57,629 nt of DNA from a virus (Duplodnaviria; Caudoviricetes), in the IMG/VR virus record IMGVR_UViG_3300020044_003994, positions 1-57,629 of that record; one strand, written 5' to 3'. The notes under the pieces were generated by a model. That model was given only the letters and a program-made list of their open reading frames with translations. It was not told the origin of the DNA and searched no databases. Both the position numbers and the translations under genes were made by a program. Below, piece after piece: positions 3,737 to 28,608 of this stretch; positions within the stretch are counted from its first letter, which is position 1; every line of letters starts with the position of its first letter.

Positions 3737-4255
3737 ATGCCTAACTGGTGCCAAAACTCAATGACGATCAGCCACCCCAATGCTGCCAAGATTAAAAAAG
3801 CAGCAAAAGCTTGGAACTCTGGCAAATTTTTGCAGACCATGATCCCCTGTCCCTCCGAACTGATTGAAACAGAAGCAAGCAATGCAGGAGATGACGAGAA
3901 CAAAGCCAAGATCGCAGCCAACTTAGAAAAGTATGGTTATGCCCATTGGTACGACTATCGGGTCGCTGAATGGGGTACGAAGTGGGATGTGGGGCGTGAT
4001 CCATCCTATGGTGAGGATGCCATAGTCACAAACAAATCTTTTTTTGTTGGCTTTGATAGCGCATGGTCGCCGCCCTGCGCTGCATACGCCAAGCTGAAAG
4101 CCTTGGGGTACACGATCAAAGCCTACTACTACGAGTCTGGTATGAATTTTTGTGGTCGCTGGGACGATGGTCAAGATGACTACTATGACATATCAAAAGA
4201 TGGCATACCGCAGGACATTTCTGACGAGATGGGAATAGAGGAGTATGACGAATGA
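3737..4255 (+). CDS. YubB/DUF1281 (Api92-like) ferredoxin-like fold protein
   Basis: MPNWC.N, WYD....WGTKWD, FDSAWSPP, YYESGM.FCG. Confidence 0.75.
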   Translation: MPNWCQNSMTISHPNAAKIKKAAKAWNSGKFLQTMIPCPSELIETEASNAGDDENKAKIAANLEKYGYAHWYDYRVAEWGTKWDVGRDPSYGEDAIVTNKSFFVGFDSAWSPPCAAYAKLKALGYTIKAYYYESGMNFCGRWDDGQDDYYDISKDGIPQDISDEMGIEEYDE

Positions 4256-9815: not shown

Positions 9816-9960
9816 TTGTCCCCTCACAGTTGTGTGCATCCGCCTGTGTTTTAAATTGAAAATGATGGCTGCATTTGGTACACCGCCATGCCTGACCGCT
9901 GGTTACTTTGGTAGTGTTACCAGATTCCCTGACCTGCCATGTGCGGACAAGCTCAATCAT
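9799..9960 (-). CDS. Small zinc-finger-like protein, paralog of 9436..9597
   Basis: WRCTKCSHHFQFKTQADAHNC; ATGA overlap at 9960. Confidence 0.6.
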   Translation of the reverse strand: MIELVRTWQVRESGNTTKVTSGQAWRCTKCSHHFQFKTQADAHNCEGTNENDE

Positions 9961-10109
9961 GCAGCGCCCCGCATTTCCCAGCCCAGCAAGAAATAATTCC
10001 ATCTGGTCTGCATGGCGGCGTTTACATACCGGCCCTTCTCCATTTTGAAGTCGGTGTCGATGTAGCCCCTGCTTCGCATCACTGCGAGGAATATTTTTTC
10101 TGGCCTCAT
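9957..10109 (-). CDS. Small protein, paralog of 9151..9315
   Basis: Read by eye: RYVNAAMQTRWNYFLLGWEM. Confidence 0.65.
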   Translation of the reverse strand: MRPEKIFLAVMRSRGYIDTDFKMEKGRYVNAAMQTRWNYFLLGWEMRGAA

Positions 10110-10603
10110 GTGTTCTTCTCCTTCAAGGCTTGCTCAATGGCCTTGGCAAATGTCCACGCATCAAGATCATCCATATAAGTTGCAGAAGCAGAGGCGGCAA
10201 TTACTTCCTCATCCATCAGCCCAACCCATGTGCGCTGTGGTGGGTAGTTGTTGCTACTGCAAGCCACGCATTCATACAGCACTTCTGCTTTGCATTCGGG
10301 GCATATAGGCTCTGTGCGCTGTGGTGGGGTGGTTCGGAACGACATTTCATCGTCAACGCACTTATCACCTACCTGACAGCGAACTCGATAACACCCTTTT
10401 GGGTTTTTAGCGTGTACGCATGGCTCTTGCTCAATCTCTTGCCCCAACCTTTGAACCTCACGCATGGGGTATTCCAATCGTTCTTTGGCGGCCACCAGTT
10501 TGGCAAATGCTACAAGTGCCTCAGAATATATGCCATCAAGGTGTGGGCGCATTCCAATCAATTTGCATTCTTGTGCCATCTCAATGATTTCATCTTGTGT
10601 CAT
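10106..10603 (-). CDS. Mosaic cassette protein (MTQDEIIEMA / PPQRT x2 / WVGL.DEE / LKEKNT modules)
   Basis: ORF track; internal 16-nt direct repeat at 10229 and 10313. Confidence 0.7.
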   Translation of the reverse strand: MTQDEIIEMAQECKLIGMRPHLDGIYSEALVAFAKLVAAKERLEYPMREVQRLGQEIEQEPCVHAKNPKGCYRVRCQVGDKCVDDEMSFRTTPPQRTEPICPECKAEVLYECVACSSNNYPPQRTWVGLMDEEVIAASASATYMDDLDAWTFAKAIEQALKEKNT

Positions 10604-12391: not shown

Positions 12392-12558
12392 TTCTCGCCT
12401 CTCAGTTCTTTTTGTTGAATGTCAAATCGTTCTTTCCACTTCTGGTACTTGAGCGCACAGGCTTCGCATGCACACTCCCAGGTGAATTCATCAGGGTCAG
12501 CAACGCTGCCCTCTCTCTTGATTGGCGCTAGGCCAAAGCCAGATGGAAAGTCGCTCAT
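12388..12558 (-). CDS. Small hypothetical protein (CACEAC)
   Basis: Read by eye; ATGA overlaps. Confidence 0.55.
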   Translation of the reverse strand: MSDFPSGFGLAPIKREGSVADPDEFTWECACEACALKYQKWKERFDIQQKELRGEK

Positions 12559-12887
12559 CGCTTCATCCCCCGGATGTATGCAACAAAGCTTTGCACCGTG
12601 TCACGACCAAACGGCCCTGTGAACTTGGTCTCCAACTCTACAGCCACCTCCTCCAGCGTGTCGTTGCGGTGCAGGTGTACAAACTCTGCGGGGTGTGAGT
12701 GCACATCCATGTGTGCAACCTGCCGCTTGCGCCAGCCGCCTGTGTGTTCCCACTGGCCCTGCTTTAAGGCCAACTGCTCAAATGCTTCGTCTTCTGGGTC
12801 TTTCATTTTTGAATTGCTCCATTCCTCACAGTTGTTTACGCTCTTGAGGCCCATCGCTTGCGCCACTTTGCGGTCAAGGTCACTCAT
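12555..12887 (-). CDS. Cassette hypothetical protein (true start may be internal MKDPEDEAF)
   Basis: ORF track; ATGA junction. Confidence 0.6.
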   Translation of the reverse strand: MSDLDRKVAQAMGLKSVNNCEEWSNSKMKDPEDEAFEQLALKQGQWEHTGGWRKRQVAHMDVHSHPAEFVHLHRNDTLEEVAVELETKFTGPFGRDTVQSFVAYIRGMKR

Positions 12888-13108
12888 GTGTTCTTCTCCA
12901 GCACTTTGTTAGTCCACTCAACTTTGTAGATGCCGCCATCCTTGCCAAAGTCGATGCGTATGTTGCACTCAATCAGGTATGGATGCCTACTGTGCCCCAA
13001 CCCATCCATGTTTTGGTTTACACGGTAATACTTGCTTGCCGCCACCTTGCCTTGGTCTTCAACAGGCACGGTCTGTTGATACAGCGGTTCAGGTGTTTTG
13101 GATTTCAT
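12884..13108 (-). CDS. Cassette protein ending LEKNT
   Basis: Shared junction repeat. Confidence 0.6.
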   Translation of the reverse strand: MKSKTPEPLYQQTVPVEDQGKVAASKYYRVNQNMDGLGHSRHPYLIECNIRIDFGKDGGIYKVEWTNKVLEKNT

Positions 13109-13350
13109 GTGTGCTCCTTGAGTTTGGCTTCAATGGCTCTGGCAAATTCATACAAGTCCCAATCAACCATAAAACCTTTCATCTTCTTGGGCATTGAATC
13201 AATCACTTGTGTGATGGCTTCATCCGTCAGATCAACCCATTCACCCTTTGGACACAACGGCCACACTTGACCTAGTGGCGTGAACAAAGGGCAGTCTTGA
13301 TCTGTGCTGACCACGCCGTTGCTTGGGTCGTACCATGCGATTGGTTTCAT
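13105..13350 (-). CDS. Cassette protein (WVDLTDE...AIEAKLKEHT)
   Basis: Shared junction repeat. Confidence 0.7.
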   Translation of the reverse strand: MKPIAWYDPSNGVVSTDQDCPLFTPLGQVWPLCPKGEWVDLTDEAITQVIDSMPKKMKGFMVDWDLYEFARAIEAKLKEHT

Positions 13351-13580
13351 GTGTTCTTCTCCTTGAGTTTGGCTTGCGCAAAACGAACGCCACCATGAAA
13401 TGCCGCATAGTTATCTGATTTTTCTGCGTCAGGGTCTATTTCTTCATCCGTCAAGCCAACCCATTCCTTTGGGTGCAAGTACACAGGTACAAGTTCAGCG
13501 CCCATTGCGTTTTGGAATTGATGTTCACCGTAGATGAACAACCCCTCGCCATCCTTGCGGACATATCCGTATGGTTTCAT
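13347..13580 (-). CDS. Cassette protein (WVGLTDEE...AKLKEKNT)
   Basis: Shared junction repeat. Confidence 0.7.
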   Translation of the reverse strand: MKPYGYVRKDGEGLFIYGEHQFQNAMGAELVPVYLHPKEWVGLTDEEIDPDAEKSDNYAAFHGGVRFAQAKLKEKNT

Positions 13581-14107
13581 GCTCCCTCCAGCCTCGCTGG
13601 TTTCACGGCCTCAATCACAAACGCAAAAGAGTTTTCGTTTTCATCAATGAATAGCGCATTGAAGTCAGCTTTGTAGATGCTGCGGAAGTCGGACATGGAA
13701 GTATTACCAACACCCTTGCGGTAAATGTCCTGGCTTAAAAACGACAGGTTCTCCCTTTGCAGCACCCTCGTGTGGCTTGGATCCCCCAGTGCCCACACAG
13801 AAAACCTTGATGGGCAGGTCACAAATAACTGACCGCCCGGCTTCAAAATGCGCCACAACTCTGAAAACTGGGCAAAGAAAAACTTGTAGTCCCCCTGTGC
13901 GCCGGTATGCTCCAGCACCTCATAGGCGTGGATCTCGTCAAACTCATCATCCTCAAAAGGATATGGAATCTGCATCAAGTCCCACACTATGTCCGGCTTG
14001 TGGTCTGGGTTGTAGTCCAGCGTGGTCAGGTTTGTGAACCCTTGTCCGTCTGGGCCAAATAACCTGCGCTCGTGGTTTGACCCACATCCAATCAATAGCT
14101 GCTTCAT
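13577..14107 (-). CDS. Class I SAM-dependent methyltransferase (Methyltransf_11-like)
   Basis: LIGCG, PFEDDEFDEI...VLEH, RILKPGG, DPSH. Confidence 0.8.
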   Translation of the reverse strand: MKQLLIGCGSNHERRLFGPDGQGFTNLTTLDYNPDHKPDIVWDLMQIPYPFEDDEFDEIHAYEVLEHTGAQGDYKFFFAQFSELWRILKPGGQLFVTCPSRFSVWALGDPSHTRVLQRENLSFLSQDIYRKGVGNTSMSDFRSIYKADFNALFIDENENSFAFVIEAVKPARLEGA

Positions 14108-14229
14108 CAGTCTTTCCTTTCTTGTTCGTCCATCCAAAACCAAACCTCTGCGAGTGCGTACAGCACCATCCCAGCTACCGCTACACACAGCGCACCCAGC
14201 AAAAATATCGTTACCACTGTCTCACTCAT
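14107..14229 (-). CDS. Small membrane protein, 40 aa
   Basis: Read by eye; AAGGAG RBS; one TM helix. Confidence 0.55.
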   Translation of the reverse strand: MSETVVTIFLLGALCVAVAGMVLYALAEVWFWMDEQERKD

Positions 14230-14590
14230 CTGCACTCTCCTTCACAATGTTGCACTACTATACAACATTATTCATCTACCAGTTAGCTAGGGCTTTCACC
14301 TACCAGACAGGATGATGAGTTAAGCATACCTAACCCGTTGACCCTCCCTCCCCTGCTGGGGGCTTGGAGGATCAAGGCTCTTTACCAAGGCACTATGTCG
14401 GGTATGCCGACTATCGGGTAGCCACTCCGCCCTCCCCTGGGATCCCGATCCTTCTAGCTTTCGCCTGTTGGTCGATCATCTCCCAGTCAGTGGGGTATGT
14501 GTCATGAATGACAGCCTTGTATATCCCTTTCGCTTACGCTACTTGGGGGCGCGGGTCACGCCGAGCCGGTCTTTACAGTCTTCCCTTCGC

Positions 14591-14800
14591 TTCCACCGTC
14601 AGGGTCTGGTCGCTTGTACGTGTGATGGGGGGAGGATGTCTGTCCCCCGTGCTGGCACTACACGGCAGGAGTGGAAAGCAAAAAAGCCGTTAAGACAGAC
14701 CCCGGTGGAATGACACCAGCTTGTGGCTGGAGCAACCCCATTACGGGGTCGGGATCTGACTTAACGGCTTTCAATTGCATGGCATTCCACTGCCTAGCTG
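14591..14800 (-). ncRNA. Structured leader/attenuator with terminator-like hairpin and alternative pairings
   Basis: AAAGCCGTTAAG/CTTAACGGCTTT stem (14683-14771) followed by a U-run on the minus strand; repeated GTGGAA/TTCCAC complements. Confidence 0.65.
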
Positions 14801-14806
14801 GTGCAG

Positions 14807-14836
14807 ATTATTGCAGGAAGTTTCAGCGAATGTCAA
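14807..14836 (-). promoter_or_regulatory. Sigma70-like leftward promoter
   Basis: TTGACA-N18-AATAAT on the minus strand. Confidence 0.6.
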
Positions 14837-14928
14837 CACCCCATGCGCTTGAGGGTTAATAAATTGTTGGGGAGGAATTACCAGCGGTGGCGCAAACACT
14901 CCACAGAGGCGGCAACCACATGAACCAT

Positions 14929-14993
14929 CCAACACGGCTGGGGACTGTTGGCCTACTCCGAGAACCCCCAGAGTCAATCCCCATGCGTGTTAG
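14929..14993 (-). ncRNA. Constant-stem/variable-loop hairpin unit B
   Basis: CTAACACGCATGGGGATTG-N27-CAGTCCCCAGCCGTGTTGG. Confidence 0.7.
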
Positions 14994-15095
14994 TTGTTGG
15001 TGAGATTCGAACTCACGGAGGCCCAAGTATTGCCCATGACGGCACTCAAGTCTCTATAGTCATGTCACCAATAGACCAGACTCTGGCACAACTAC
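14992..15095 (-). ncRNA. tRNA-like RNA (class II shape) with an 18-nt anticodon loop; not a canonical tRNA
   Basis: Acceptor GTAGTTG/CAACAAC (6/7 pairs), D-arm CCA..TGG, stem CATGAC/GTCATG, variable arm, T-arm GTGAG-TTCGAAT-CTCAC; no encoded CCA. Confidence 0.7.
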
Positions 15096-15176
15096 CAACA
15101 CGGCTGGAGACTGTGTGTCCAACGAGCAAGAAGCCTCAATTGGCTACCTGTGGCTGGCAATCCCCATGCGTGTTAG
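15095..15176 (-). ncRNA. Constant-stem/variable-loop hairpin unit A
   Basis: CTAACACGCATGGGGATTG-N44-CAGTCTCCAGCCGTGTTGG. Confidence 0.7.
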
Positions 15177-15185
15177 CTGTTTATC

Positions 15186-15213
15186 AAAAAAATGGGATCT
15201 ACACAGACCCCAT
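15186..15213 (-). terminator. Rho-independent terminator
   Basis: ATGGGGTCT-GTGT-AGATCCCAT followed by a T-run. Confidence 0.75.
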
Positions 15214-15249
15214 AAGGAACGAACACATGAAGTGGCAACTGCTTACCAC
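15186..15249 (-). ncRNA. Candidate ~64-nt antisense sRNA (hairpin, seed, terminator)
   Basis: TATGAT -10 at 15256-15261; hairpin GTGGTAA/TTGCCAC; seed TTCATGTGTTCGTTCCTT; terminator. Confidence 0.6.
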
Positions 15250-15256
15250 GGCTCCA

Positions 15257-15544
15257 TCATACACATTTTTTTAAAATCTCCAAAGCCTCATCCACATTAT
15301 TGACAATAGCTAATAAGCCGCCCGTCCATTCATCAAAGAACTTCTGCTCCGCCTGTGTCAGCGCCCGCGCCGATGGAGACTTGTTTCCATCTTTGACCTC
15401 CAGCAGCAGCGTATAGCCTCTGTAGCCCACCAAAAGATCAGGGACGCCATCACCCATCGTTACCACCCGAACAGTGGCTCCACAGGCCCGCAGCGCAGAA
15501 ACAATTTGCTCCTGATTTGCATCCACTCTATTTGCTCTGCGCAT
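15257..15544 (-). CDS. VRR-NUC-like PD-(D/E)XK nuclease
   Basis: RVDANQ..IV.ALR..G, GVPDLLVGYRG, LLEVKDG, LT..E..F. Confidence 0.8.
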   Translation of the reverse strand: MRRANRVDANQEQIVSALRACGATVRVVTMGDGVPDLLVGYRGYTLLLEVKDGNKSPSARALTQAEQKFFDEWTGGLLAIVNNVDEALEILKKCV

Positions 15545-16280
15545 TGATTTCCTCTATCGGCTTCATCGTTGTGATGTCGTACTTTGCGTGCTTTGTCCAC
15601 ACCCTGATGTAGTTACAGATAGGCCGATCAGGGCAGCTATCACACTTGTGATTCTTGGTGCTGGTGTTTGAGGCGTGGGATCGGTGATAGTGAAGAACAT
15701 GAGGGTTCCTGGCAAACTTGTACCGCTCTGCTAGCTGCATGAACAGATCCCCATCCTCGCAGCCCGCCGTGAGTTTAGTGTTATACCCTTCCACCTGCCG
15801 ATAGGCGGACATATGGTACATACCAAAGTGCCTCCACCCAAACCACGATAGGTTCGGCTCATAGTCCCGGCTGGTCGTGTAGCTGGTAACGTTACCATCT
15901 ACGCCGATTTCGCTGGAATCGCTGTAGACCAGGGCCACATCTGGATGGCTCATCAGATACTGATACTGCATCGCCAAGGCATGGGGATACAGCATATCGT
16001 CCGTATCTAAATGCCCAACGAAATCCCCCTTGATATGGGCCATTGCAGCAGCCCGGTTACCAGGGGTCTTTAAGTTCCGTTCATTCTGGTAAACCCTTAT
16101 TCGCTCATCTTTTTCTGCTAGCTTTTGGGCCAATTCATAGGTGCCATCGGTAGAACGATCATCATTGATCACCAATTCCCAGTTGGGATAGGTCTGCGCC
16201 TGGACACTTTCGATGGCAGCTTTGATGAATTGCACGTTGTTGTAGGCAATCATCATCACGGAAATCAGCGGCAAATTCAT
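15528..16280 (-). CDS. GT2-family glycosyltransferase with C-terminal Cys cluster
   Basis: ISV...YN, AIESV.AQTY.NWEL...DD.STDGT, LDTDD, EDGDL. Confidence 0.9.
   Translation of the reverse strand: MNLPLISVMMIAYNNVQFIKAAIESVQAQTYPNWELVINDDRSTDGTYELAQKLAEKDERIRVYQNERNLKTPGNRAAAMAHIKGDFVGHLDTDDMLYPHALAMQYQYLMSHPDVALVYSDSSEIGVDGNVTSYTTSRDYEPNLSWFGWRHFGMYHMSAYRQVEGYNTKLTAGCEDGDLFMQLAERYKFARNPHVLHYHRSHASNTSTKNHKCDSCPDRPICNYIRVWTKHAKYDITTMKPIEEINAQSK
15885..15896. repeat. GGWAACGTTWCC site 3 (in the GT2 gene)
   Basis: TGGTAACGTTACCA. Confidence 0.85.
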
Positions 16281-21859: not shown

Positions 21860-21876
21860 TGGAAACGTTTCCACTA
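21857..21876. repeat. GGWAACGTTWCC site 5: perfect 20-bp palindrome between two convergent stop codons
   Basis: TAGTGGAAACGTTTCCACTA. Confidence 0.9.
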
Positions 21877-24800
21877 CTTCATCGACTTGCGGGTTTCTTC
21901 AGCCTGCTCAGCCATCATTGAAATCAATTCTTTGAGGCGGTCAATCTCTTCACGCTTGGTAGCGCCGTCCATAGAGGTGTCGTTTGTAACCATGCGGATC
22001 TGCAAGCGCACCTTAGCCATGTTCTTTGCCGTCTTGTCATAGAACTTGGCTAGGCCAATCTTGTCTTGCTTCTCTTCAAGGATCTTGAGTACCTTAGCGG
22101 AGTCACCGATCTCTGCATAGTGCCGCATATCAGCATACGCCTGACTGATCTCTTTGTTGTTCTCATAGAAAGCAGTGGCGTATTTGGATTGATTCGATGG
22201 CAGCGACTTGATGAATCCAACACTCACCTTGTCCACCCACTTGGTATCAGGATAAGCGCCATCTTTGAACGGCATGACGGCATAGTGCGATGACTCTGCA
22301 ATCGTGCCGCCCAGCCAGCCAAAGTAAGCCTTGATGGCATAGTCCACCTGCACAGGAGACAGCCCCTCACCAGGAACCACCACCTTGGTCAAGCCACCCA
22401 GGGCGATAGCCAACGGGCTTGTGGTGTCTGTTGCACGTTCTTGCTTGGACAAGCGCTCCATGCCGGTAGACTCAATCGGCGCACCAGTGAATGAATCTTT
22501 GTTGGCATACAGATCCACCAGCGGCTTCACAAACTGAGGCAGGTTGACCGCAAAGGTGTCCGTAATCATTCTCTTCAATGACTGCTCAAACTGCTTGCCC
22601 TCTGCGCCTTGGTCAAAGATCTGCTCAGCCGTGCGCTCTGCCAACGTACCAAATGCACCGATCTCAAAAGGTTTGGGTATGCGCAGCGCATATTCCATTC
22701 CAGGCAGCTTGAACCACCAGAAGTTATCCCGATCCCACTCATCCCGCTTCTTAAACTCTTCATCGTCCTTGAACGCAAAGTACAAGGCCAAGGATGCAAA
22801 GCACACAGCGCCGGTAACGATTCCAAAGGACTCAGCTTTTTGCCTGTCCGTTTGCTCAATCGGCTTACCAGTGATGGAGTTATAGAACACCCGAACAGTA
22901 GGATTGATGCCGTCTTTGCCCAGCTTGTACAGACCTTGTGTGCGGGCATTCAAGAATGGAATCACTTGAGTCAGCAGGCGGAAGGCAGGCCATGAGCCTT
23001 GCATAGAGAAGTCAAGCAAATCTCTGGCGTAGTATGAAGCTTCAAGGTGCCCATAACCCTTGTCCTTCATCTGTTGATACAGCGCCATGCGGTTTGCAGA
23101 TTCAGACTTGTTGCCAAACTCTTGGTACTTATCCCATGCCTTTTTAAGTTGGGTCTTAATCTTTGCAGGTGTATCCAGAATGTGTTCTTCTTTGACGCCC
23201 ATCTTGATCAGCCGCTTCACCAGCGCAGCCTGATCTCCCTCAACGATGGAGCCAAAGTTAAACAAAGCGCCGCCAGCCAAGGCAGACATATGGGCAGGAT
23301 TGTTCTTGTTGCTCAAAGCCCAGCCGTTAACCACGTTGGCAAATGGATTCTTCTTCAGGTCACTGACAGCCATCGCAGAGATGGAGTCGCGGAACAAGTT
23401 GCGGATCTTGAACGCAGGAGAAATGGTCACGCCAAACTGGAGGACGTTCTTGAATCCTCTAGCCACATCCAAGAACTTGGACTTTGGCCCCATGTATCCA
23501 ATGGAAGTAATTGAATCCAGCAGCAAAGGATCAAGCACTTGGTAATACACAGGCTGACCATCGACCATCGCCTTAACTGTTCCCTTGCCGGATTCAGTCA
23601 TCCACGACTTGACAGATCCATCGCCGACCATTTCATCATTGCTGCGGTAGTAAACCTTACCGTCAATGATGTAGTACGGCACTTTGAGGTTTGGCTCTGC
23701 GCCGCCCAGCTTTTCGGCAGCAGTAAGCGAAGCGGCAGCAGCCTGATTCTTCATGGAAGCAGACAGGATGTGACTCCAGTTACGCAGAGTGTTTTCCATC
23801 AGATCGGCAAACGGGCTGACACCACCCTCCAAAGCTTTGGAGAAGTGCTGGTTTGACAAGCCGCTAGAAGTCATTACCTTGGAAACGTCACCATCTTCCA
23901 TCTCACGATAGAACGGGATGTAGTTGATGTCAGCAATGAAACGCTCATAGCCGATTGGGTTCTTTTGCAATTCCTCAATCTGGGCCTCAAGCTCTTCAAT
24001 CTCTTTTTCTCTCTTGGCATCAGACAGGTTTTCATTGTTCTGAGCAACATTGATGCGATCACGCAGCCTGTCAATTGCGTTAGCCGTAGAGTCAATCAGC
24101 CCAGCGTCCAGGGCCACCTTCAGCACAGAACGGTTTAGTTTGTTCATCTCCGTGCGCACAGCTTTATAGACCTGCTCACGAGGCTTGCCGTCTATCTCTC
24201 CGGCGCTAAGCTCATCCCTGCGGCTAACAAGCTCATCCAGGTTGTCAATGTTGGATCGTTTGTTCGCGGGCAGATCGGCTTCACGATTCAAGGCAACCCA
24301 CATCTGGTAACGATCCACCTCATTGCCCAGAGGCTTCAAGACTTCAATCATGCCCTTGGTATCAGGTTTGATATTCAGTGCGCCACCGTCATTGAATACT
24401 TGACCAAAGAACATTAGACCTTCAAGAGCGCCGTCTACAGTTTTGGACATACGAGCAAGAATATAAGCGTCTTCGCTGTACTCTTTAATGGTGCGGAACT
24501 GATCAGCAATACCTTGGGAAAGGCGCTGCCAGAAGCGATCCTGCATCTCTTCAATGCGCTCAACGATTGTCTTCCTCTGAGGAGCAAAGATAGGATTGGC
24601 CTTCTCCAAAAAGTCGGGCGGCACATCTTGGAAGCTGGTGGGCGACAGAGGCTTGCGCTTTTGCAGAGCAGCAGAAGCCTTGGCTTTTAATTTGTCGCCC
24701 AAGCTCTCCTCTTCAACCTGTTCTTCGCCCACGCTCTCATAAAGGAATTCTTCCCTGGGCGCATACTTGACATTCTTTGCCAAGACAAAACGACCCACCT

Positions 24801-27800
24801 GCAATACCTCATCGGCAGACACAACAGGCTTGGTGTTTGATCTATCGTAGAAGAATGAATGGCGCAACGGATCCAGGCTAACCTGTGACCACGCAGGATC
24901 TTTCATCTTTTCTTTGACCATCTTGAAGATTTCATCTGGCGTCATATTGACCCAGGTTCCCTCAATGGTTTGCTGCGGTGCTTTTTGTCCTGCACGCCCT
25001 TCTTTCATTTGAGCAATGCCAAACGCCTTCTCTTCAGAACGGATGGCAAACACAGCATTCTTTAAAAATCCAGCCGACTTGTAGCTGATATTCTTTCCAG
25101 CCGCCGCATTGGTTGCGGGCTTGCCTTCGTGAATAGACACTACGCTGCCATTAACTCCGTTGGCTCTTCCCCACTCCAACGCAGGGATGTCCATTCGCAA
25201 GCCAACTTTTGTGCCGTCTGCAATAGGGGCATTAACAAGCTTAGGATCTTTTTTCTGAGGAATCTGGTGTACCAAGATTTCCCTCATGAGCGCCTCAACA
25301 ATAGGAATTTCTAGCTTGTCACCAAGTATTTCTCTGATGGGCATATAGTAATTTACATACTCATCATACTGTTGCTTGGTAATGTTTCCAGCCTTTAGCT
25401 CACGCGCAGCAAGCACAACCTGTTCATTGCGGCCTTCTTTTAGCTTGAATCCCTTGGGCGCAGTTAGCTTGGGAGGAGCTTTAGCAACAGGCTTTGCTGC
25501 TGCCGGTGGCGCAACCTTCTTCGTGCCAATGCTGCGACCAATAGCCTTCTCGGTTACCTCTGTGGGGGTTTCTAGCAATGTATCTGCCGCTCTGACCACC
25601 GCATCCAAAGCGGTTTCATATTGCGCATCTATACCCAGGAACTTCCTGAATATCTCTACCAATCGGGTCAAAGCATTGGTGTTGCCAACCTTTACAGTTT
25701 TAAGGTAGTCCTGAAAATCTGGATAAGTTAAACCCCATGAAATTAATTCTTTGACGTTCTGAACGGTGTTGGCACCCTGAGCAATTGCGTCAAAAATTGG
25801 ATGCTGTTTACCCGCCCTTTTGTCGGCGGCAATCTGCTTTTTTACTTTATCAAGCACAACAGTTAAGTCGTTGTACTCTTTTCCCCGTGCGCTCAGCAAA
25901 GGAACGGTGGCAGCATGAAGCAATTCATGCAAGATGGTGATGTATCTTGTGCCCGTACCTCTATGCGCTTTGCCATTTTTTAATCCGGCAAATTTTAAAT
26001 TACCAGCGCTTAAATTAATTGCGTAACTAAATATGCCACGGTAACTTAAGTCATCTCGGTTTAAAACGGTAACAGGTTTATTGAAAAAATTCCTGTCATC
26101 AAGCTCTTTAATTCGAACCAAGACCTTTTCTGCAACAGCTTTTGCCGCACTGTTTGGCGCATTGTCCACAGCCCATTGAGCAAGCTGAGTAGCGGTCATG
26201 CCCTTTATCTCTGCGGCAATTTCCTCCATTGACTTCTTGGCAACAAAGTCTTTTGGCTCCGGCAGCGCCGGGGGAAGGCCCGCATCTACTGTTGGTTTTT
26301 CTTCTTTTGGAGGGATTTTTTTAATACCGTCAGTCTTTCTTTGGGGTTTAATGACTGAAGAATTCTTAATAGCATCTGCTTGTTCAATTTCGGCTTGGGC
26401 GATAAGTTCGTTGATTTCATCTTGGGTAAATCCTTCGCTGATGTATGTTGCAATTTCGTCTATGGTGTACTGATTTTCACCAATGGTGTATGACTGCGAT
26501 CCGCTTGTTGCAGCAAACAAAGCGTTGCGATATGCACCATTAAATTCTTCAATAGATGCACTAGGCAGGCTGTCGCTTAATTCTTCTCTCAGGCGATCAA
26601 TATCTACGCCAGCAGAACGAGCTTCTTCCTCAAGATCTTTCAAGCTTACTTCGGTAAGATCTTCTTTTGGCTGCTCGGCCATCTCTCCAAGCTCTAAGTT
26701 TGTGCTTGGAACAGCTTTTAGCTTTTCAAGCTGATCCTGTATCTCTGCTTTTTTATTTTGTGCAGCCTCTATCTTTGCGGCGGCTTCTTCGGTTCTATAG
26801 TCCCCATTGCGCAGCTTCTCTGCAATATGTTCTATCGCTGCCTGGGCATCAAAGTTTTCATTGTCGGAGCGGTTTTCCGTTGGCAAAAACGCATCCAGCG
26901 CACCATCGGCCACTAAGTCTTCCAAGAGAACGCCTTGCCCGCTAGCGCTGTACAGCTGACGCAAACTCTTTTTGTCTTTGTCAATATCGGCCAAAGAGAA
27001 TGCGCCGGGCCGCTCCACAAGCGTTCCCTTGAGCATGCTAAACAGGCTTCCCTTTTCAGCCTGCGCCTCTTTTATTTCCTTGTTTACCTCAACCAAAGCA
27101 GCCTGCACTTCTTTTATTTCTTGCTTTTCTTCTGGGGTAAATTCGACCTTTTCTACACCCCTGGGTTTTGTTTGCTCAGTCTCAATAGGAACAAACTCAG
27201 GCGCTTCTGGCTCCACGGGCGCAGCAGCCTGCGGCTCAGGAGGTGTAGCGGCAGGGGGCGCTTCCGCAGGTGGTAACGTTTCCACGCCGGTTGGCGCAGC
27301 GGCACTAGGAACCTCGGTTTGTGAGGGTATACCCTGATCGACAGGTGGTAACGTTTCCACGGCAGCAGGCACGCCCGGTGCTATTTCTGTGGGCGGCGCA
27401 GCAGGTGGCGGCGGAGGTGTGCCTTGACCAGCGGGTGGGGCGGCAGGTGGTAACGTTTCCACCTTGGCCTCTGGACGCCGTGCAGCACCAGCAATGGCAC
27501 CCATGCCACCGCCACCAATAGCAGCCATACCAGCGGCCTGACCAACGCCAGCAAACAGATCCTGCTCAGGGTTGACCTCACGCATAGCCAAATTCTGAGA
27601 GAACTTGCCGCCACCCTCTTCAACCATCTCGCTTACGGACTCGCCCAAAGCGCCTTTACCGGCACCCAGAATGCGACCAGTTTTCCCTGGGACTCCAGCA
27701 AATGCCTCTTCCAAAGTACGTGCGCCGGGAAGTCTCTGGGCCAACAGTGAGATCAAAGCGCCAGACGCACCAGCAGCCCTAGCTAATCCCAAAGCTTTCT

Positions 27801-28608
27801 GAGCAGCTTCCGGCTCAGACATACCCTTGGCTATCGCCTCTTTGTAGATGTCTTCATAGGCACCAGCGCCTATATCAGCACCCTGCTGTACGGCGCCAGT
27901 ACCAACAGCAGCCTTGACACCAAGCTCACCGGCTTTCTTGGCCGCGATCTGCTTAGCCGCCACCTGGGCAGCTTCTTTGGCAGCGCCGCTAGCCACCAAT
28001 GCAGCAGCTTCACGGGCAGTAATACCAGCAGCAGTAAGTGCAGCAGTGCCGCCACCCGTTAACAAGGCTGGAATAATCTGTGGAATCTGCTCCACCAAGA
28101 AGCCAACAAGCAAGGCTGGGTCTTTGACAGTCTCGCCAAAAGCCGTAACACCGGCAGCAATCTGCCCGGTCTTTTCAGCTTCTTGTACCTTCTGCGCCCT
28201 GGCTTCTTCTTTAGCCTTGAGCGCCGGGGACAGCATCTCTTCCCCATACTTCTTGATGTCTTCACCAGCCCCCAACAGACCAGTTTTAGAGAAGTCTCCA
28301 GTAGCCAAGCCATACAACTGACCCGGTAACTGTACCAACGAACCAATGCCAGAAACAAACTTGCCGCCTACGTCCTTGGCAGCTTCACCATATGTCCTTT
28401 GAGGAATAGGCTTGGCTGTAGAAACCGCTTCTTCTTGGACAACAGGCGCTTCTACGCCATACTTTTGCCGGATGGCAAAGCGGGTTGCATCATTTGCCTG
28501 GGAATAGTTGGGATCCTGTGACGCATACTTATTAAAAATGGCTTGCTTGGTAGCAAAGTTTGCATTTACATAATTTGGGTCAGCAAGAACTTCTTGTAAA
28601 GTGGGCAT
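21874..28608 (-). CDS. Giant internal virion / polyvalent protein with HExxH motif and C-terminal LPD38-like domain
   Basis: 2244 aa; LHELLHA; WDRDNFW...RIPKPFEIG; last gene of the virion operon. Confidence 0.75.
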   Translation of the reverse strand: MPTLQEVLADPNYVNANFATKQAIFNKYASQDPNYSQANDATRFAIRQKYGVEAPVVQEEAVSTAKPIPQRTYGEAAKDVGGKFVSGIGSLVQLPGQLYGLATGDFSKTGLLGAGEDIKKYGEEMLSPALKAKEEARAQKVQEAEKTGQIAAGVTAFGETVKDPALLVGFLVEQIPQIIPALLTGGGTAALTAAGITAREAAALVASGAAKEAAQVAAKQIAAKKAGELGVKAAVGTGAVQQGADIGAGAYEDIYKEAIAKGMSEPEAAQKALGLARAAGASGALISLLAQRLPGARTLEEAFAGVPGKTGRILGAGKGALGESVSEMVEEGGGKFSQNLAMREVNPEQDLFAGVGQAAGMAAIGGGGMGAIAGAARRPEAKVETLPPAAPPAGQGTPPPPPAAPPTEIAPGVPAAVETLPPVDQGIPSQTEVPSAAAPTGVETLPPAEAPPAATPPEPQAAAPVEPEAPEFVPIETEQTKPRGVEKVEFTPEEKQEIKEVQAALVEVNKEIKEAQAEKGSLFSMLKGTLVERPGAFSLADIDKDKKSLRQLYSASGQGVLLEDLVADGALDAFLPTENRSDNENFDAQAAIEHIAEKLRNGDYRTEEAAAKIEAAQNKKAEIQDQLEKLKAVPSTNLELGEMAEQPKEDLTEVSLKDLEEEARSAGVDIDRLREELSDSLPSASIEEFNGAYRNALFAATSGSQSYTIGENQYTIDEIATYISEGFTQDEINELIAQAEIEQADAIKNSSVIKPQRKTDGIKKIPPKEEKPTVDAGLPPALPEPKDFVAKKSMEEIAAEIKGMTATQLAQWAVDNAPNSAAKAVAEKVLVRIKELDDRNFFNKPVTVLNRDDLSYRGIFSYAINLSAGNLKFAGLKNGKAHRGTGTRYITILHELLHAATVPLLSARGKEYNDLTVVLDKVKKQIAADKRAGKQHPIFDAIAQGANTVQNVKELISWGLTYPDFQDYLKTVKVGNTNALTRLVEIFRKFLGIDAQYETALDAVVRAADTLLETPTEVTEKAIGRSIGTKKVAPPAAAKPVAKAPPKLTAPKGFKLKEGRNEQVVLAARELKAGNITKQQYDEYVNYYMPIREILGDKLEIPIVEALMREILVHQIPQKKDPKLVNAPIADGTKVGLRMDIPALEWGRANGVNGSVVSIHEGKPATNAAAGKNISYKSAGFLKNAVFAIRSEEKAFGIAQMKEGRAGQKAPQQTIEGTWVNMTPDEIFKMVKEKMKDPAWSQVSLDPLRHSFFYDRSNTKPVVSADEVLQVGRFVLAKNVKYAPREEFLYESVGEEQVEEESLGDKLKAKASAALQKRKPLSPTSFQDVPPDFLEKANPIFAPQRKTIVERIEEMQDRFWQRLSQGIADQFRTIKEYSEDAYILARMSKTVDGALEGLMFFGQVFNDGGALNIKPDTKGMIEVLKPLGNEVDRYQMWVALNREADLPANKRSNIDNLDELVSRRDELSAGEIDGKPREQVYKAVRTEMNKLNRSVLKVALDAGLIDSTANAIDRLRDRINVAQNNENLSDAKREKEIEELEAQIEELQKNPIGYERFIADINYIPFYREMEDGDVSKVMTSSGLSNQHFSKALEGGVSPFADLMENTLRNWSHILSASMKNQAAAASLTAAEKLGGAEPNLKVPYYIIDGKVYYRSNDEMVGDGSVKSWMTESGKGTVKAMVDGQPVYYQVLDPLLLDSITSIGYMGPKSKFLDVARGFKNVLQFGVTISPAFKIRNLFRDSISAMAVSDLKKNPFANVVNGWALSNKNNPAHMSALAGGALFNFGSIVEGDQAALVKRLIKMGVKEEHILDTPAKIKTQLKKAWDKYQEFGNKSESANRMALYQQMKDKGYGHLEASYYARDLLDFSMQGSWPAFRLLTQVIPFLNARTQGLYKLGKDGINPTVRVFYNSITGKPIEQTDRQKAESFGIVTGAVCFASLALYFAFKDDEEFKKRDEWDRDNFWWFKLPGMEYALRIPKPFEIGAFGTLAERTAEQIFDQGAEGKQFEQSLKRMITDTFAVNLPQFVKPLVDLYANKDSFTGAPIESTGMERLSKQERATDTTSPLAIALGGLTKVVVPGEGLSPVQVDYAIKAYFGWLGGTIAESSHYAVMPFKDGAYPDTKWVDKVSVGFIKSLPSNQSKYATAFYENNKEISQAYADMRHYAEIGDSAKVLKILEEKQDKIGLAKFYDKTAKNMAKVRLQIRMVTNDTSMDGATKREEIDRLKELISMMAEQAEETRKSMK
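27272..27460. repeat. GGWAACGTTWCC sites 6-8 (27272, 27347, 27449), encoding VETLPP x3
   Basis: CAGGTGGTAACGTTTCCAC three times. Confidence 0.9.

Follow-up and report, generated by a model that had tools for sequence, protein, structure and literature searches.

In this study, we describe a short promoter-to-terminator unit on the minus strand of an uncultured tailed phage, which is probably a regulatory small RNA. The unit (15186..15261) is found at the end of a gene encoding a protein of 95 amino acids (aa) in the IMG/VR record IMGVR_UViG_3300020044_003994. The whole stretch of DNA that was analysed, 57,629 nucleotides (nt) or 57.6 kb with a completeness estimate of 91%, is called the window in the following. 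We give a probability of roughly one half to the reading that the unit belongs to a new family of small RNAs in phages, in which the promoter is placed in the end of a protein gene and an open stretch, the seed, is a generic complement of translation start sites. Only a small number of phage small RNAs have been described, and those discussed in the relevant passages of a 2025 review come from phages and prophages of Escherichia coli and Salmonella (PMC12197685).

Architecture of the candidate RNA

An earlier note on this DNA, made from the letters alone, had listed a promoter, a 5' hairpin, an unpaired stretch and an intrinsic terminator, and had proposed a trans-acting small RNA that pairs with the Shine-Dalgarno (SD) sequence and the start codon of messenger RNAs (mRNAs). 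All of the listed elements are present on the minus strand, as follows.

15283..15278, minus strand: -35-like hexamer TTGGAG, within the final codons of the 95-aa gene
15261..15256, minus strand: -10 hexamer TATGAT, 16-nt spacer from the -35, overlapping the TGA stop codon (15259..15257) of the 95-aa gene
15249..15232, minus strand: 5' hairpin of 7 base pairs (bp), GUGGUAA with UUGCCAC around a GCAG loop, beginning 7 nt past the -10
15235..15242, minus strand: GCAGTTGC inside the 5' hairpin, near-invariant in the family
15231..15214, minus strand: open 18-nt stretch UUCAUGUGUUCGUUCCUU, with anti-AUG (CAU) and anti-SD (UUCCUU) parts
15213..15192, minus strand: intrinsic terminator hairpin, 9 bp, 4-nt loop
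15186..15191, minus strand: terminator U-tract, six further U (seven consecutive T in the DNA), predicted 3' end of the RNA

Transcription would start at about 15249. The open stretch is unpaired in both the minimum free energy (MFE) fold and the centroid fold, the two being identical, and its motif has an unpaired probability of 0.97. The fold energy of the 65-nt RNA is -20.8 kcal/mol (z = -3.7), a value equalled by 1 of 200 shuffled sequences.

Conservation in related phages

Using the 95-aa protein as bait, we examined 351 candidate stretches from viral contigs, of which 317 encode a relative. The 80 best loci (L002-L081) were retained. The layout of the unit is shared by 68 of the 80. A terminator is found at most about 110 nt past the stop codon in the window and in all 68 loci of L002-L070 that reach beyond the stop; L064, which ends at the contig end, was left out. 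In L071-L081 a different gene occupies the place after the stop, and in five of these a weak match to the covariance model described below is located 740-900 nt further on. The predicted RNAs (58 unique sequences) are 49-98 nt long with a median of 69.5 nt, and in 54 of the 58 the terminator is preceded by a CU-rich motif (UCUCCU or UUCCUU). The family is found in many freshwater and wastewater samples, and at least 68 related contigs keep the unit at one place.

A covariance model was built from alignment A1, which comprises 23 sequences of the broader clade of the window. It gave 66 matches at an expect value (E) of at most 1 in 80 sources, a single copy at each locus and exactly one in the window, and matched at E<0.01 at the homologous place in 30 loci outside the alignment. 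Rfam 15, searched with the whole window at gathering score, yielded no match to any curated family, phage antisense RNAs such as C4 included. The region 14000..15400 at E<=10 gave two chance-level matches only, both away from the candidate, and in 18 related loci Rfam found only transfer RNAs (tRNAs).

The element GCAGTTGC is near-invariant across the RNA family, though its pairing partner varies by clade. It is also somewhat over-represented in genomes, for example with 9 copies against about 1.6 expected in one of them (G006). A role as a genome-wide DNA site was rejected, as the other copies have no common context and, by eye, most or all of them seem to fall within coding sequence.

RNA structure and strand

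In alignment A1, 91.7% of cells are paired as compared to 83.5% in shuffled alignments, and none of 500 shuffles reached this value. Changes on both sides occur in 7 of 14 pairs, and sliding the partner columns by 1-3 positions lowers pairing to 38-56%. One pair of hairpin 1 is C-G in 11 sequences or U-A in 7, and compensatory changes are present in 5 of 7 aligned pairs of the terminator. Hairpin 1 moreover retains a U-G pair in 18 of 23 sequences, which on the opposite strand is a C-A mismatch. Because the helices covary and the U-G pair is strand-specific, the folded RNA is, on these comparative grounds, a product of the minus strand.

A predicted promoter embedded in the end of a protein gene

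Concerning the promoter, we scored -35/-10 pairs whose -10 is located within 12 positions around the stop codon and compared them with 8160 background windows of the same loci. The score is in the top 5% of the background in 59 of 69 sequences. TTGGAG-16-TATGAT of the window scores 7.9, corresponding to a background fraction of 0.014 (top 1.4%), and the usual promoters of the family are TTGAAA-17-TAATAT, TTGCAA-17-TAGAAT and TTGACA-17-TAAAAT. In most relatives a TAnnAT hexamer (TAATAT, TAAAAT, TAGAAT, TAACAT, TAAGAT or TATAAT) overlaps or abuts the stop codon, which may be part of the -10 (TAA-TAT, TAG-AAT), inside it (TATGAT) or before it (TGA-TAGAGT). The offset of the -10 to the stop depends on the clade (-8, -5, -3, 0, +2); the 17-nt distance to the TTG is maintained. 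This TTG is preserved while the encoded codons vary by clade (Leu-Glu, Leu-Ala, Ile-Ala). The predicted promoter is the strongest new evidence for a gene-like unit.

Complementarity to translation start regions

A simple codon-usage model called 96 genes in the window, from which a set of 97 start regions (-25..+12) was taken. The four best duplexes of the seed among these 97 are formed with the four cassette genes that the earlier note had named, listed here as predicted partners.

10106..10121, minus strand: junction GGAGAAGAACACATGA, gene 10109..9957, -24.5 kcal/mol, rank 1 of 97
13347..13362, minus strand: junction GGAGAAGAACACATGA, gene 13350..13105, -22.5 kcal/mol, rank 2 of 97
13104..13120, minus strand: related start region AAGGAGCACACATGAA, gene 13108..12884, -20.3 kcal/mol, rank 3 of 97
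12884..12899, minus strand: junction GGAGAAGAACACATGA, gene 12887..12555, -19.9 kcal/mol, rank 4 of 97

The contiguous runs of complementarity claimed for these genes were confirmed with 11 nt at 13356..13346, 10 nt at both 12893..12884 and 10115..10106, and 9 nt at 13112..13104, and all four fall at ATG starts of the minus strand. Likewise, the partly complementary AAGGAACACCATGAA starts of early genes were recovered at 631 and 2625, where pairing is weaker. In the comparison with shuffled seeds that had been suggested, the seed exceeded composition-matched shuffles on the 97 start regions: none of 300 shuffles was as extreme in mean energy, the fraction of the 300 was 0.013 for the best energy, and it was 0.003 for the count of duplexes at or below -14. 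Of random 37-nt windows taken from the genome, no more than 3.75% attain -14.

The junction GGAGAAGAACACATGA is present in three copies in the window and in at least 129 other viral stretches, often two or three times per contig. It may be a linker shared between small accessory genes in the phage community. A relative of the 95-aa gene, which is present wherever the RNA unit was found, was absent from all five complete or near-complete genomes bearing the junction, in which the RNA itself was not searched for.

Concerning a fit of the seed to its own phage, the seed of the window comes 3rd to 4th when the 54 family seeds are compared on the start regions of the window, a modest sign that it is tuned to them. 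In 40 loci, with 31 unique combinations of seed and start region, the start of a divergent gene is located upstream of the 95-aa gene at a distance of about 80-110 nt. The open stretch is often near-identical to the antisense of this divergent start region: L016 agrees in 17 of 18 letters, L045 in 15 of 16 and L049 in 14 of 15. Among the 31 unique relatives, pairs of a seed with its own divergent start average -17.7 kcal/mol as compared to -14.8 kcal/mol for cross pairs, a difference reached in none of 5000 permutations, and the own divergent target is in the top three in 12 of 31. The divergent gene differs in protein family between loci. We read these data as indicating that the seed follows the start-site style of its own phage, most visibly that of the first divergent early gene, with no single target established.

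In five relatives (L043, L045, L056, L010 and L030, at about 3960-4003), about 80 nt separate the 95-aa gene from the start of a divergent small gene upstream. In the same five, judged by eye, the 95-aa gene starts 8-9 nt past a -10-like hexamer with no SD, and it is therefore probably translated from a leaderless mRNA.

Genomic context and neighbouring structured RNAs

The window comes from a phage whose closest named relatives are environmental Caudoviricetes. Megablast of the window against named phage records gave no match, and a distant search of these records gave a single 128-nt match, to the second RNA unit described below and excluding the candidate RNA. DNA contigs from four sequencing runs contained relatives of the phage, together with mosaic joints between 14707 and 15317. 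The candidate unit is located on the minus strand within a leftward-running block of early-type genes, with the following surroundings.

16280..15528, minus strand: glycosyltransferase gene, upstream of the 95-aa gene
15544..15257, minus strand: 95-aa gene, whose 3' end bears the candidate promoter; weak PHROG matches to endonuclease and Holliday-junction-resolvase families
Downstream of the 95-aa gene, minus strand: gene-free tract of about 1 kb
Beyond the gene-free tract, minus strand, in the order of the leftward block: methyltransferase, many small genes, ParB, helicase and primase

Searches of the 95-aa protein against Pfam, NCBIfam and PDB sequences were all without match.

The gene-free tract contains further structured elements on the minus strand. 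Two long hairpins (15095-15177 and 14929-14994) have fold energies of -40.8 and -37.3 kcal/mol with z of about -5. The base is conserved and common to both, with AACACG-CA-UGGGGAUUG as its 5' side and CAGUC(C/U)CCA-GC-CGUGUU as its 3' side. Among 81 sequences, 18 contain such units, which number 23 in total and are all located on the gene strand. Some loci have several of them; L042 has three by this pattern and four motif matches. The long hairpins have no Rfam match and could be processing sites of the RNase III type or a new structured RNA. Between 15000 and 15100 there is a tRNA-like piece whose T arm, GTGAG-TTCGAAT-CTCAC (15016..15000), is perfect and whose 3' end is acceptor-like. It was called neither by ARAGORN nor by the Rfam tRNA model, and the tRNA search of the window found none. 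In relatives, real tRNAs (Met, Tyr, Leu, Thr, Pro, His) occupy the place of the tRNA-like piece.

A second promoter-to-terminator unit (14675-14836) begins with TTGACA-18-AATAAT and an upstream TG (14836..14807). Its predicted fold is a branched hairpin, about 100 nt in length, with a U-tract at the end (-63 kcal/mol, z = -6.5). More than 15 related loci contain the unit with 70-90% conservation, and so does record MW202545.1, in which its annotation is that of a hypothetical protein. The second unit is followed at 14232-14680 by about 450 nt free of open reading frames (ORFs) and abundant in GAAA/GCGA-type loops (z = -2.5), parts of which have 90% identity in L055 and 72% in L031 and no Rfam match.

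Elsewhere in the window, a 2244-aa protein (21874-28608, minus strand) matches over approximately its first 630 residues the N-terminal portion of a PHROG whose annotation is virion RNA polymerase (E = 3.8e-26). The same protein has an LPD38 domain at its C-terminal end, and no polymerase domain was identified in it.

Discussion

In our preferred reading, the sigma-70 RNA polymerase of the host would start at about 15249 and stop in the U-tract at about 15188, resulting in an RNA of about 62 nt. The small-RNA gene would thereby use the same intrinsic terminator as the mRNA of the 95-aa gene. The product would carry a stem-loop at its 5' end and the terminator hairpin at its 3' end, and the open pyrimidine-rich stretch of 18 nt between them mirrors a strong phage start region with SD, spacer and AUG. 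Its most likely action would be pairing over the SD and AUG of an mRNA, by which binding of the 30S subunit would be blocked. The best predicted partners in the phage of the window are the four small cassette genes, whose junctions are of the GGAGAAGAACACATGA type, and in several relatives the best partner is the first gene of the divergent early operon. Part of the polymerase would read through the terminator. The analysis shows the architecture, its conservation, the covariation of the helices, the strand and the complementarity; we infer that the promoter fires, that a discrete RNA accumulates and acts in trans, and which mRNAs it would act on.

Several observations weigh against this reading. 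The promoter scores depend on a matrix of E. coli promoter frequencies. In the own clade of the window the -35 is poor (TTGGAG, CTGGAG), and 4 of 8 members are below the 5% cut. The CU motif of the family is predicted to be unpaired (probability >=0.7) in only 22 of 54 sequences, the anti-AUG CAU is absent from one whole large clade, and the near-invariant GCAGTTGC finds no explanation in a small-RNA model. Regarding the choice of targets, pseudo-seeds made by reverse-complementing the 97 start regions of the phage itself do about as well as the candidate, which is placed at their 9th to 20th percentile; complementarity alone therefore singles out no targets. The plus strand at the seed simply resembles a good start region of this phage. 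A matrix of the seeds of six genomes against all start regions has no clear diagonal. By the mean of the top five, the own start set is first in 3 of 6, and by the overall mean the ranks are 1, 5, 1, 5, 6 and 4. When all windows within a locus are compared, 9 of 31 cases have the divergent start region among the top 1% and 18 of 31 among the top 5%, and it ranks first in 2 of 31. In the clade of the window the seed pairs poorly with the divergent start (-8.5 kcal/mol in L002 and L007). The first divergent gene was not accepted as a unique target, as it is first in only these 2 of 31 within loci and its protein family is not constant.

These results bear directly on the proposal of the earlier note that one small RNA silences any gene that acquires the standard junction, as a plug-in regulon of accessory genes. 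The idea is attractive and unproven, and it is not supported by the data: pseudo-seeds do about as well, the junction is common, the six-genome matrix lacks a clear diagonal and CAU is absent from a clade. In the six-genome comparison, no clear covariation of seeds and start sites was seen. What stands of the trans-acting small-RNA proposal is a self-contained minus-strand unit with an exposed SD/AUG complement, kept in 68 of 80 loci and backed by covariation; the dedicated junction regulon is not supported.

The main rival is a reading of the unit as chiefly a leader or a module at an operon boundary, which we regard as possible but less probable than a small RNA. The promoter would then mainly drive the downstream non-coding array of long hairpins and tRNAs or tRNA-like elements, or the next protein gene, and the RNA of about 62 nt would be a by-product without function in trans. 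The hairpin with its U-tract would be a leaky or regulated attenuator, and the CU-rich stretch and GCAGTTGC, which is retained regardless of its pairing partner, could be the recognition site of a protein or antiterminator; for the CU-rich stretch, a boxA/nut-like nature is conceivable. In support of the leader, a tRNA-Met begins about 5 nt past the U-tract in L004, L007 and L008, and in eight loci (L010, L013, L030, L034, L040, L043, L046 and L048, by eye) a gene for a PP-loop-type protein begins about 5-15 nt past it, leaving no room for a promoter. Because these genes begin a few bases past the U-tract, the terminator must leak in such relatives. Moreover, no sigma-70-like promoter is found in the window from 15186 to 14836, despite the two conserved hairpin units and the tRNA-like element there. 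Against the leader, many other relatives have a strong, consensus-like new promoter directly past the terminator (by eye, for example L006, L041, L059 and L065), so that the short unit stands alone. Nor does a plain leader give a reason why a mirror of SD, spacer and AUG is retained that tracks the start regions of its own locus. No alternative antiterminator fold was found for the RNA of the window, in which the MFE and centroid folds coincide, and a scan of 56 proteins against PHROGs revealed no antiterminator protein.

A cis-acting 3' untranslated region (UTR) is a far more remote alternative. In the icaR mRNA of Staphylococcus aureus, an anti-SD stretch in the 3' UTR pairs with the start region of the same mRNA, and the stretch described here is indeed located in the 3' UTR of the upstream operon. 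It could by analogy fold back onto the start region of the mRNA for the glycosyltransferase and the 95-aa protein, and pairing with the glycosyltransferase start is possible at -15.1 kcal/mol. The two start regions of its own operon, however, rank only 17th and 39th of 97, which differs from the icaR type. In addition, the 95-aa gene is the first gene in relatives, 8-9 nt past a -10-like hexamer and thus probably leaderless with no SD to mask (by eye), and a conserved internal promoter would be superfluous in a cis-acting 3' UTR.

Least credible of all is the rival named in the earlier note, that the SD-like and ATG-like letters are the true ribosome binding site (RBS) of a 15-aa ORF on the plus strand (15226..15273) and the minus-strand hairpins only the terminator of the upstream gene: AAGGA is indeed followed by ATG 9 nt later and the opposite frame is open for 62 to >78 codons in about 10 relatives, but an SD-like word with an ATG at 4-11 nt is kept in only 24 of 59 unique sequences, the peptides vary from 7 to >78 aa without conservation, the long ones are of two unrelated sequence types (by eye) and are antisense shadows of the 95-aa gene, no upstream plus-strand promoter was found, the U-G pair of hairpin 1 and the G-U pairs of the terminator work on the minus strand only, and promoter and U-tract point the other way. 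A conserved small ORF opposite the RNA, as in type I toxin-antitoxin systems, was accordingly not seen.

Among known systems, the 6S RNA of the lambda late operon is a short terminated leader transcript made before antitermination in lambdoid late operons. Our candidate resembles such leaders in its strong, constitutive-looking predicted promoter, in an intrinsic terminator within about 60-100 nt and, in some relatives, in genes behind it that depend on read-through. It is unlike them in that no antiterminator gene or recognition element was identified and many relatives restart with a new promoter. The anti-start-site stretch, conserved in the candidate, has no role in a system of the lambda 6S type. 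A cis-antisense arrangement of the lambda OOP kind is not present, as the candidate is co-directional with both flanking genes and its only overlap, in sense orientation, is with the final codons of the gene upstream.

In phages P1 and P7, the c4 RNA and its single dedicated target ant come from one transcript, from which c4 is released by processing. The candidate, in contrast, has its own predicted promoter, its predicted partners are 1.8-5 kb away or in a divergent operon with no single target prominent, and it has no Rfam match. According to the review, c4 pairs around the ant RBS and thereby blocks translation, so that both are phage RNAs with an established or proposed RBS-pairing block, and in both the seed and target vary among related phages (PMC12197685). 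The closest likeness in layout is to small RNAs from the 3' ends of bacterial mRNAs with a promoter embedded in the ORF, namely DapZ of Salmonella, MicX of Vibrio cholerae and ArgX of Lactococcus lactis, of which ArgX is about 66 nt long (PMC9438474). The candidate shares with them a promoter at or just before the stop of the upstream gene, predicted here with a matrix of E. coli promoter frequencies, a Rho-independent terminator common with the parental mRNA, whose helix covaries in the candidate, and a short RNA with an open seed before the terminator. It differs in being phage-encoded, in having no sequence or Rfam kinship to them, and in a generic anti-start-site seed where theirs are specific.

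As a wider and decidedly speculative picture, which we hold to be improbable as a whole, an RNA island may have formed behind the 95-aa gene in a widespread group of freshwater phages. A small RNA mimicking the tail of ribosomal RNA would come first, followed by arrays of long hairpins, by tRNAs and their look-alikes and by the second promoter-to-terminator RNA of about 120 nt. Instead of regulating particular genes, the small RNA would be a general brake on translation from the strong SD-AUG starts of early phage genes and perhaps of the host. Messages without a leader would not be affected by it, among them the one for the 95-aa protein in relatives, and the seed of the small RNA would drift with the start-site style of each phage.

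For the search for such RNAs, a seed antisense to an RBS always seems to own a regulon, and the control with reverse-complemented start regions shows that complementarity alone proves little. If the RNA is made, it would exemplify in uncultured phages the DapZ-type layout that is known from bacteria, and it would constitute a new and easily testable family of phage translation regulators.

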